64,000 bases of DNA from an uncultured delta proteobacterium (GTDB lineage: Bacteria; Myxococcota_A; Polyangia; Polyangiales; Polyangiaceae). Position numbers and translations under genes: made by a program. The DNA lies in the NCBI GenBank assembly GCA_963782055.1, contig CAWAIF010000003.1, positions 4,128,001-4,192,000 of the forward strand, in the 5' to 3' direction. A model generated the notes under the pieces. It was not told the origin of the DNA, searched no databases, and saw nothing but the letters and a program-made list of their open reading frames with translations. Every line of letters begins with the position of its first letter. Position 1 is the stretch's first letter. Below, piece after piece: positions 37,352 through 41,887 of this stretch.

Positions 37352-37593
37352 TCAGCGACGATAGTCGCGCCGCATGGATCCGTCGTGGCGGCCGCTGCGC
37401 ATGCAGCAGGCCTTGAAACCGCCTCGTCGACCCGCACGGGCACGGATCGTTGCGACCGAGGCGCTCGAGGAGCTCCTTGTCGCCGTGCACGACGCGGTCA
37501 CCGCGCTTGACGTGGGCTTCGGACGGGAAGCCCGCGCGGCGCTTGCTCGTCCGCTCGAAAGCAGGGGGCTTCCAGGTGGTCCTCGGGTCTCAT
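37352..37593 (-). CDS. Small SEC-C zinc-binding protein (79 aa) decoded across two +1 frame changes
   Basis: GGGAGG SD + ATG 37593; frame 0 [12 protein letters not shown]; +1 frame [28 protein letters not shown]; +2 frame [12 protein letters not shown] stop. Both junctions are TTT-C. Confidence 0.7.
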
Positions 37594-38160
37594 GGCGCAC
37601 CTCCCGGTGTGCTGGACGCACGCGCGGCGCGCGCCTGACATCGCTCGCGCGCGGCTCAACGGCGAGGCTCGTCCCCACCGGGAGCTCCATCACCAGACCC
37701 CGCGTCGCGTAGCCGAGGCGCTCGTAGAGCTCGCGTGCGCGGGTGTTCCAGCTCCAGACGTGGAGCTGGACGGCCTCGGCGCCCTTGGAGGCGGCCCACG
37801 CGTGCGCGGCCTCGAGGAGGGCGCGGCCGACGCCACGACCTCGGTCCGGCTCGCGCACGACGACGCCCTCGACGACGGCGACGCGGCGCGGGACGGACCC
37901 GTCTCCGTCGCGCGGGGGCTTCATCAGCACCTCGACGACGCCCAGGACGGCGCCGTCCTCGCGCGCGACCAGGAGGGCGTGATCCGGGGAGCGGATCCGT
38001 TCGAGCATCCAGTCCATGGATCGCGCGGGGCCCGCGCGCGGGCGGAACACGTCGGGCGTCTTCTCGGCGTGGACATGATCGGATTCGGCGAGCACCTCGC
38101 AGACCGCGTCGTAGTCGGCCAGGGCGGCGGGTTCGACCAGCATCGAGAGAGGCTAGCACC
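37423..38160. repeat. Diverged direct duplication, copy 1 (GNAT + SEC-C gene)
   Basis: Colinear high similarity to 41173-41904, including the intergenic and promoter sequence. Confidence 0.9.
37668..38143 (-). CDS. GNAT acetyltransferase, copy 1 (stop bypassed by a 1-nt deletion relative to copy 2)
   Basis: VVREPDRGRGVGRALL motif A; LHVWSWNTRARELYERLGY; near-identical to 41399-41887. Confidence 0.85.
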
Positions 38161-40219: not shown

Positions 40220-40975
40220 TCAGGGCGGCGTGGGTCCCGGGGCGGCGCACAGCTTCGAGGAGCCGGCGCGGCAGCCGATGCGGGTCGCTCGGTCGATGGC
40301 CTTCGACACGAGCGGACTCGACGGCGCGTTCTGCAGGACGCCCACCAGGTACTCGCACGCCGTCGCCACGCCGTCGGGGTGGTCGAGCGCACCGTCGCAG
40401 CCTCTGAGCAGTGCCTGCAGCGCCCGGGAGCGATCTTGCGGGACGCCTTCCCCCCGCGCATACGCCGCACCGGCCATGGCGCAGCCCTCCGCCTCGCCGG
40501 CGGCGCAGGCGAGCGCGAAGAGCCTGGCGGCGCACGCGAGGCTCACCGGATCGCGATGCTCCAGGCGCACCGTCGCACCGTAGTTGGTGCACCCGAGCAC
40601 GTTCCCCAGACGACACGCTCGCTCGTAGAGCCGCAGCTCCTTGCCGCGGTCGGGGTGGTCCGACTCCGCGTCCATGTTGCCTGCGGTCACGCACGCCGGG
40701 GCGCCGCCCGCGTCGCAGGCGCGCTCGCACGCGTGCGCGTCGCCGCACGCGTCGTCCGGCTCCAGACCGGAGATGGCGCCTGCGGGCGCCGCGCAGGCGG
40801 CGATGGCCGGCTTCGCGGACGAGGCTGAAGGCGCAGGCGCGTCGGGCAGGCGTACCTCGGTGGCCGCAGGCGACGCGGGTGGAGGGCTGCTCCCGGCACC
40901 GCACCCGAGCATGAGCAACACGCCGCAAACCGCGCGGACGTGTCGGGCGGCGAGAGGGAGGGTCGGTGGCTTCAT
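40220..40975 (-). CDS. Sel1-like repeat lipoprotein
   Basis: Lipobox MLGC; repeats [34 protein letters not shown]. Confidence 0.8.
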
Positions 40976-41172
40976 CGCGAGCCGGAGAGTGGTCGGAGCG
41001 CGCAGCGATGGCAAGCCGGGCGCTCGCGCGTGGCGCACCCCGGACCGGGCACCGGCAGTCGCAGCACGCCGTTGAGTGCGAGACCCCAGGTGCCATCCGC
41101 CCCGCTCGTCTGCGTCTGCCTTGCGATGGCGGTCGAAGCTCTCCCGCGACGCCCACGGCATCGCGCATGGGT

Positions 41173-41342
41173 TCGTCGATCCGCACGGGCACGGATCGTT
41201 GCGGCCGAGGCGCTCGAGGAGCTCCTTGTCGCCGTGCACGACGCGGTCACCGCGCTTGACGTCGGCCTCGGACGGGAACCCCGCGCGGCGCTTGCTCGTC
41301 CGCTCGAAAGCAGGGGGCTTCCAGGTGGTTCTTGGTTCTCAT
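41173..41342 (-). pseudogene. SEC-C small gene, copy 2, truncated after CPCGST
   Basis: Same SD/ATG and same TGC-TTT-CGA site (41307-41309) as copy 1; similarity stops just before the second TTT-C site. Confidence 0.7.
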
Positions 41343-41398
41343 GGCGCACCTCCCCGTGTGCTTGACGCACGCGCGGCGCGCGCCTGACACCGCGTCGC

Positions 41399-41887
41399 TC
41401 ACCGGCGAGGCTCGCCCCACAGCGGGATCTCCATCACCAGGCCCCGCGTCGCGTAGCCGAGGCGCTCGTAGAGCTCGCGCGCGCGGGTGTTCCAGCTCCA
41501 GACGTGGAGCTGGACGGCCTCGGCGCCCTTCGAGGCGGCCCAAGCGTGCGCGGCCTCGAGGAGGGCGCGGCCGACGCCGCGGCCCCGGTCGGGCTCGCGC
41601 ACGACGACGCCCTCGACGACGGCGACGCGGCGCGGGACGAAGCCGTCCCCTTCGCGCGGCGGCTTCATCAGGACCTCGACGACGCCCAGCACGGCGCCGT
41701 CCTCGCGCGCGACGAGGAGCGCGCGATCCGGGGAGCGGAGCTGCTCGAGCATCCAGTCCATGGATCGCGTGGGGCCGGTGCGCGGGCGGAAGACGTGGGG
41801 CGTCTTCTCGGCGTGCAGGCGGTCGGACTCGGCGAGCACGTCGCAGACCGCATCGTAGTCGGCGAGGACGGCGGGTTCGACCAGCAT
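41399..41887 (-). CDS. GNAT acetyltransferase, copy 2
   Basis: RGRGVGRALL, NTRARELYERLGY; intact 162 aa. Confidence 0.9.
   Translation of the reverse strand: MLVEPAVLADYDAVCDVLAESDRLHAEKTPHVFRPRTGPTRSMDWMLEQLRSPDRALLVAREDGAVLGVVEVLMKPPREGDGFVPRRVAVVEGVVVREPDRGRGVGRALLEAAHAWAASKGAEAVQLHVWSWNTRARELYERLGYATRGLVMEIPLWGEPRR

Follow-up and report, generated by a model that had tools for sequence, protein, structure and literature searches.

Can a small bacterial gene whose reading frame is broken twice be a working gene, and if so, what joins its parts? The question is raised by a SEC-C gene on the minus strand of a 64,000-nt stretch of DNA from an uncultured delta proteobacterium of the Polyangiaceae (GCA_963782055.1, contig CAWAIF010000003.1, forward-strand positions 4,128,001-4,192,000; the whole of this stretch is called the window here). 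An earlier note on this DNA had described a Shine-Dalgarno (SD) sequence, an ATG, two +1 breaks and a length of 242 nt from ATG to stop (80 codons plus 2). All of these, with their coordinates, hold on re-reading, and the gene is laid out as follows.

37600..37605, minus strand: SD sequence GGGAGG, 6 nt upstream of the start codon (read directly)
37593-37591, minus strand: start codon ATG (read directly)
37558..37593, minus strand: segment A, a 12-codon leader from ATG to TTT in frame 0 (by translation)
37555..37563, minus strand: shift site 1, TGC TTT CGA, with C 37557 skipped and GAG 37556-37554 as the next codon
37498..37500, minus strand: frame-0 stop at codon 32, reached without a shift at site 1 and leaving a 31-aa abortive product
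37416..37556, minus strand: segment B, 47 codons (ERTSKRR...CPCGSTRRF) in the +1 frame, carrying the first two SEC-C cysteines
37413..37421, minus strand: shift site 2, CGG TTT CAA, with C 37415 skipped and AAG 37414-37412 as the next codon
37352..37414, minus strand: final segment after site 2, 20 codons and TGA, carrying the last two cysteines of the motif and aligning with natural in-frame homologs

On the minus strand, the slippery TTT of site 1 (37560-37558) is codon 12 of frame 0, that of site 2 lies at 37418-37416, and the final stop TGA occupies 37354-37352. The stitched product, P0001, has 79 aa when each TTTC counts as one step. Near site 1, frame-specific GC3 switches from the first frame to the second, and in segment B it reaches 0.83-0.93. 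In the frame of this body, ATG, GTG and TTG are all absent from the upstream stop as far as GTG 37490. The slippery codon and the two codons that follow it had been called scarce, and each makes up less than 5% of its synonymous set across the 13,315 codons of 25 long, GC3-rich ORFs in the window: TTT accounts for 15 of 409 Phe codons (3.7%), CGA for 54 of 1151 Arg codons (4.7%) and CAA for 13 of 333 Gln codons (3.9%). A GAGG stands 3 nt upstream of site 2 in the window and is not conserved in relatives.

Joined across both breaks, the gene is predicted to encode a basic protein of 79 aa that carries a SEC-C zinc knuckle of the Cys4 type at its C-terminus. P0001 matches the Pfam SEC-C profile (PF02810) with 34 bits (cut-off 20.4) over all 19 profile positions (1-19). 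Without a shift, the middle ORF reaches positions 1-9 only, and the full match is restricted to the stitched product. The four ligands are C51, C53, C62 and C63; they lie two and two on either side of site 2, in agreement with the proposal that the second junction splits the metal-binding residues. The strongly basic N-terminal part falls outside any named family of Pfam or NCBIfam. Our NCBIfam search found no family-specific model for the gene and gave weak, motif-level hits on YchJ/YecA-type models that stayed far under the cut-offs, while a protein atlas search returned SEC-C clusters only, some of them viral. For the natural in-frame homolog P0002, modelled with 10 homologs, AlphaFold2 reached a mean pLDDT of 56.8 with residues 1-33 below 50, and in this low-confidence model the N-terminal third looks disordered.

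The SEC-C gene is preceded by a gene for a GNAT acetyltransferase, and the two form a unit that is duplicated 3.7 kb away (37424-37972 against 41173-41716, 94-95% identity).

37655..38143, minus strand: upstream GNAT acetyltransferase gene (Pfam Acetyltransf_1, 4.6e-19), its end estimated from the 162-aa paralog
41399..41887, minus strand: GNAT paralog accompanying the truncated SEC-C copy, a direct repeat
41173..41393, minus strand: truncated second SEC-C copy (L002), with SD, leader, TGC TTT CGA and body to CPCGST, 95% identity

The upstream GNAT ORF has no stop where the 162-aa paralog ends and continues for about 100 codons to 37352, in the third frame of the SEC-C gene. The second SEC-C copy breaks off inside the zinc motif and is followed by an unrelated 339-aa ORF (40220-41239), for which a Pfam search gave zero matches. 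The spacing of the repeat blocks differs by 5 nt (3744 against 3749), which places an indel between 37644 and 37673. A plus-strand ORF ending at 37364, taken by eye for ParE-like, was dropped when Pfam gave no match.

We then looked for relatives of the SEC-C gene. A six-frame search of 40 related genomes identified close homologs in two genomes of the same genus (L009, L010) and in a member of another family (L011). In each of the three the short leader closes with TTT, the next codon being CGA or TGA, and a second TTT_CAA stands at the same place in the zinc motif. Thus homologs with the same TTT-C breaks at the same positions, which the earlier note had named as the test of its reading, do exist, and because the same two breaks stand in independent genomes they are well beyond chance. 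A scan of one genome per prokaryote species yielded at least 476 relatives, the best 80 of which were retained; these come from Verrucomicrobiota, Planctomycetota, Acidobacteriota, Alpha-, Beta- and Gammaproteobacteria, Gemmatimonadales, Deinococcales and others, and cultured carriers among them include Chthoniobacter flavus (L036), Stieleria magnilauensis (L035) and Massilia (L037, L039). In a protein library clustered at 50% identity, 649 clusters matched at E <= 1e-10. Viral contigs gave 2 family members among 20 matches and plasmids 2 records, and these matches show no sign of a mainly phage or plasmid gene. One family member (L104) sits among 7 scattered tRNA genes on a 532,729-base contig classed as viral.

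Frame breaks were mapped by aligning P0001 residues 12-79 to each locus by dynamic programming, with a skip of 1 or 2 nt penalised equally. The 80 loci tabulated are 76 of the 80 retained relatives together with L001, L009, L010 and L011. Outside the counts are L052, L072, L087 and L092, which the motif search left unanchored, the truncated L002, and L012, whose divergent N-terminus gave a poor alignment with two -1 steps. This last locus (in genome G037) shares the zinc-motif half only; its site 2 has a +1 break at CGG TTT CGA, and its N-terminal region is a different one.

The direction and position of the breaks are strikingly uniform. Site 1 is TTT_Y in 79 of the 80 loci (58 TTT_CGA, 15 TTT_TGA, 6 other). 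Site 2, after the Phe of RRF/KxCC, is shifted in 52 loci and in frame in 28, and reads TTT_CAA, TTT_CAG or TTT_TAA in 48 of the 80, so that the test just mentioned extends well beyond the three closest homologs. A third site, after the aromatic residue of G-x-F/DG, is shifted in 44 loci and in frame in 36. The internal breaks number 96 over the 80 loci, all of them +1 and none -1; 86 fall at TTT_Y and the others at CTT_Y (4), CTG_C (2) and AAR_R (4). At a fourth place, the C-terminal ..YF, TTT_Y occurs in 44 of 80 loci with the +1 frame reading R[E/D]-stop, and most of the 36 loci that have no site there end in frame as ..Y-x-R-(D/E)-stop. Counting sites 1-3, two shifts are needed in 56 loci and three in 20 (together 76 of 80), and one locus, L097, is shifted at all four places.

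The codons around the breaks are also constrained. At each of the 165 TTT-type breaks of sites 1-3, TTT is followed by C or T and never by A or G; only these two bases allow tRNA-Phe (anticodon GAA) to re-pair one base forward. In the old frame, sites 1 and 3 are followed by CGA or TGA and site 2 by CAA, CAG or TAA, and stops (TGA, TAA or TAG) are common as the old-frame A-site codon in relatives. The second and third bases of that codon are fixed by the Glu, Lys or Asp that comes next in the new frame, so its slowness may be a by-product and not selected. Relatives have leaders of 11-13 codons for the most part, with ..P[C/S/F]F at the end and, in 77 of 79, with the start codon behind an SD-like motif. 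Upstream of site 1 the sequence ..GAY nnn CCC TGC (D-x-P-C-F) is moderately conserved, which could reflect an effect of the E-site codon or of the nascent peptide. No conserved prfB-like SD stimulator was found at the shift sites across the tabulated loci. In four Lysobacteraceae-like loci (L055, L058, L094, L098), site 2 has no TTT_Y and the break is best set one codon later, at AAG_G or AAA_A (Lys); this would be a different slippery codon or out-of-frame binding in the A site.

Substitution patterns follow the predicted frame through each break. Between the window and its same-genus relatives, dN/dS is 0.09-0.29 in segment B and 0.12-0.23 overall, and after site 2 it is 0.20 for L009 against L010; the same nucleotides read in either wrong frame give 1.1-2.7. 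Over all pairs, the median in the predicted frame is 0.12 for segment B and 0.28 for C+D, and 1.2-2.4 for both in the wrong frames. Across comparisons, predicted-frame values span 0.09-0.4 and wrong-frame values exceed 1; the codon alignments were protein-guided, which lowers dN somewhat, and the wrong-frame controls share the same columns. Third codon positions vary about three times as much as first and second positions in each segment read in its predicted frame. The sites themselves persist within clades. Shifts at sites 1, 2 and 3 are common to all of six Sphingomonadaceae loci, and shifts at sites 1 and 3 to all of eleven Pirellulales-like loci; in both groups every site is kept at 54-94% synonymous-site difference, with pN/pS of 0.06-0.32. 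Purifying selection thus acts on each segment in its predicted frame, and so on the trans-frame product.

A conserved Phe that is never used as a shift site provides a further comparison. At this position (F22, with Pro next), TTC occurs 50 times and TTT 5 times, and where Tyr replaces Phe, TAT occurs 17 times and TAC 7 times. The preference for TTC looks like avoidance of an unwanted UUU_C.

Nature also provides versions of the gene that need no joining. In-frame homologs, among them P0002, P0007 and P0014, align with P0001 over its whole length, leader included, and in them a leader of like length is fused to FERTSK. Most relatives fare worse in automatic annotation: among the best 120 predicted homologs, 53 gene-caller products end at the site-3 Phe and 3 at the site-2 Phe, 36 continue out of frame past site 2, and 13 run in frame through both. 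With 107 of these 120 truncated or fragmented, the expectation that standard annotation would miss or break up the gene is borne out.

From this evidence we consider it very probable that the gene is real and expressed through two programmed +1 ribosomal frameshifts by slippage of tRNA-Phe in the P site. Translation would initiate at ATG 37593 and proceed for 12 codons, leaving tRNA-Phe on UUU in the P site with the scarce CGA in the A site. There the tRNA would re-pair one base forward, from UUU to UUC, and 47 codons further on the same slip would occur at UUU_CAA. Ribosomes that fail to slip would release the 31-aa peptide at site 1, or at site 2 a product without two of its four metal ligands. 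That the ribosome is the agent correcting the frame is what we infer from sequence comparison. The mechanism put forward in the earlier note, +1 slippage of tRNA-Phe on UUU, fits every feature tested, with UUC or UUU as the new pairing and a slow codon or a stop next in line. Two or more serial slips imply a very low output unless each is efficient. UUU-pyrimidine shift sites have been studied in E. coli. UUU_Ynn is a published shift-prone sequence, with influenza UCC_UUU_CGU and Yersinia YopN-TyeA among the cases given in PMC5009743.

What such an arrangement might be for is suggested by the neighbours of the relatives. Genes for RNA repair or ribosome rescue lie nearby in 11 of 80 loci (317 neighbouring ORFs), and in all 9 loci with coordinates checked they are on the same strand as the SEC-C gene. 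These neighbours include RtcB (L025, L037), an RF-1-domain PrfH-like protein (L025, L089), Ro60/TROVE (L061, L066, L078, L086), Hen1 (L067, L095), and an RNA ligase with an HD/kinase protein (L070, L032). A GNAT acetyltransferase is among the neighbours in 8 loci, the window included. Among the neighbours of the window gene itself no RNA-repair gene was identified, and the functional context comes from relatives.

Arrays of 5-24 tRNA genes surround 9 of 85 loci, and no tRNA gene was found in the 64-kb window. Long tRNA arrays are described as induced by translational stress, in neighbourhoods enriched in RNA-processing and translation genes (PMC8421152); the text of that paper mentions neither SEC-C nor frameshifting. 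Beside tRNA-cluster copies of the gene, an HNH endonuclease gene and SPFH/Band-7 genes recur (L075 3253-3810; L023, L027, L080), and an HNH gene is also reported beside cyanobacterial long tRNA arrays (PMC8421152). Other contexts are clade-specific. In Xanthomonadales-like genomes the SEC-C gene follows a YqeY-domain gene, with TsaD or DnaG genes nearby, and in sphingomonads it lies between argJ and a UvrD/PD-(D/E)XK helicase-nuclease gene; contexts stable within a clade are seen at L055, L060, L094 and L096 and at L048, L054, L063 and L077.

On the basis of this genomic context of relatives, we tentatively suggest that the serial UUU_Y sites may form an ultrasensitive translational sensor of stalled A-site decoding, whose product would act on the ribosome or on RNA-repair and spare-tRNA modules. 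The yield would be the product of two to four slip probabilities. Being multiplicative over the slips, it would rise steeply when A-site decoding slows, and the gene would report damage to, or shortage in, translation. Possible triggers are tRNA cleavage, ribosome damage, or a shortage of release factor or tRNA. The targets of the protein could be the ribosome or the Rtc, PrfH, Pnkp/Hen1, Rsr and tRNA-array modules that are often encoded next to relatives. A plainer alternative is constitutive attenuation of a dose-sensitive protein.

The shifts may, more broadly, be ribosomal and yet have no regulatory role, with slippage at UUU_Y frequent enough that one-base insertions at Phe codons are tolerated, or merely holding a dose-sensitive protein low, and sensing nothing. 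We regard this as possible, though doubtful. Sites occur both ways among relatives (28 in frame and 52 shifted at site 2, 36 and 44 at site 3) and fully in-frame natural genes exist, so the protein works without shifts; translational "correction" of indels is, moreover, among the uses of frameshifting listed in PMC5009743. But mere tolerance fits poorly with two or three obligatory shifts in 76 of 80 loci, with shifts kept within clades at saturated synonymous divergence, or with the avoidance of TTT_C at the non-shift Phe F22. Neutral tolerance does not predict such a build-up and retention of sites.

Could the first site involve no frameshift, the leader being an upstream ORF and the body translated by re-initiation or from a non-canonical start, so that the internal sites alone slip? 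An ATG 3 codons past the junction in 21 of 80 loci, and the TTT_TGA that ends the leader in 15 and would permit termination followed by re-initiation, lend this some plausibility. The window is not one of those 21, however, and like 32 other loci it has no ATG, GTG or TTG in the body frame ahead of the conserved SKRR. Re-initiation has no need of the TTT_Y junction found in 79 of 80 loci, and the like-length leader fused to FERTSK in natural in-frame homologs speaks for a continuous protein. Re-initiation at a downstream ATG could therefore replace the site-1 slip in the 21 loci and cannot do so in the window, and we consider it an unlikely explanation of site 1.

It is very improbable that the window copy is a decaying pseudogene or a product of assembly indel errors, whatever its relatives do. 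The region has seen indels, as the adjoining GNAT ORF without its paralog's stop attests, and a truncated second copy lies 3.7 kb away; public sequencing runs hold at best 0.15 of the sampled words of the window, and no run with this DNA was found. Yet both breaks are of the same kind and at the same codons as in L009, L010 and L011, the four cysteines, SD, start and final stop are all intact, and dN/dS against same-genus relatives is well below 1 (0.12-0.23). Contigs of relatives from other samples cross both sites gap-free; those from four runs represent relatives at 80-95% likeness and bear on neither this assembly nor its expression. An assembly error at the window is excluded by conservation of the breaks among relatives, and not by its own reads.

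Restoration of the frame by other means, through a four-base-decoding tRNA or through polymerase slippage or editing that takes one U out of the RNA, is also highly improbable: tRNA-like genes with abnormal anticodon loops do occur in the tRNA arrays of three relatives (L023, L027, L091), but most loci, the window among them, lack a nearby tRNA gene, known transcriptional slippage sites are much longer than a run of three T, and a metatranscriptome contig of a relative crosses site 2 gap-free, a weak point given possible DNA carry-over. The tRNA-like genes are those that ARAGORN reports as 'tRNA-???' with two-base anticodons, in tRNA clusters beside the SEC-C gene (L023 634-721, L027 1026-1099, L091 560-633).

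Serial slippage by tRNA-Phe is accordingly the reading that we set against known systems. The family needs two to four slips within about 80 codons, nearly all at UUU_Y, over many phyla. If confirmed, it would provide a natural, portable and tunable frameshift cassette, and a candidate for sensing translation damage, with links to RNA-repair systems and to tRNA arrays whose induction signals are poorly understood. It would also offer annotation pipelines a concrete fix for the truncated and fragmented predictions described above. In the literature searched, neither the family nor multi-site +1 frameshifting in a bacterial cellular gene is described; the GeneTack cluster supplements of PMC3711429 lay outside the search and could list the family. 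The accessible parts of PMC5009743, PMC3711429, PMC8421152, PMC4758250 and PMC10272220 contain no description of it.

The SEC-C motif itself is shared with SecA, YecA and YchJ, which carry the same Pfam motif with four metal ligands, but the window protein of about 79 aa has no SecA, UPF0149 or YchJ body. To our knowledge, programmed +1 frameshifting in bacterial cellular genes comprises very few cases, chiefly prfB, and each is single-site. In prfB, which encodes release factor 2, the motif is CUU_UGA_C with an upstream SD-like stimulator (PMC3711429). The SEC-C gene resembles it in the proposed bacterial +1 P-site re-pairing with a putatively slow A-site codon and in a shift early in the gene, and two of the four CTT_Y breaks among relatives, both at site 3 (L035, L081), are the prfB sequence CTT_TGA. 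In the window, however, the slippery codon is UUU, read by tRNA-Phe, and the A-site codons are the sense codons CGA and CAA; no prfB-type site, with an SD-like element 3 nt upstream of CUU_UGA_C, is present. The family also has no conserved SD stimulator and has two to four sites per gene instead of one, and whereas release factor 2 reads its own UGA, the SEC-C product has no known link to the A-site codon.

Influenza A PA-X (UCC_UUU_CGU) and Yersinia YopN-TyeA share the tetranucleotide and the logic: tRNA-Phe shifts from UUU onto UUC ahead of a rare Arg codon (PMC5009743). UCC_UUU_YGA is found in 12 of 79 site-1 contexts. In those cases a single site yields a minor product beside the main one, whereas the SEC-C family has several sites, is spread over many bacterial phyla, and would have no functional product unless shifted. 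A need for more than one +1 shift per coding sequence is likewise reported for Euplotes nuclear genes and some mitochondrial genes (PMC5009743). There it is a genome-wide habit of eukaryotic or organellar translation, and here it concerns one small family in ordinary bacterial genomes. The mechanism belongs to a known kind; what is new is the family itself, how many sites each gene has, and its spread over phyla.
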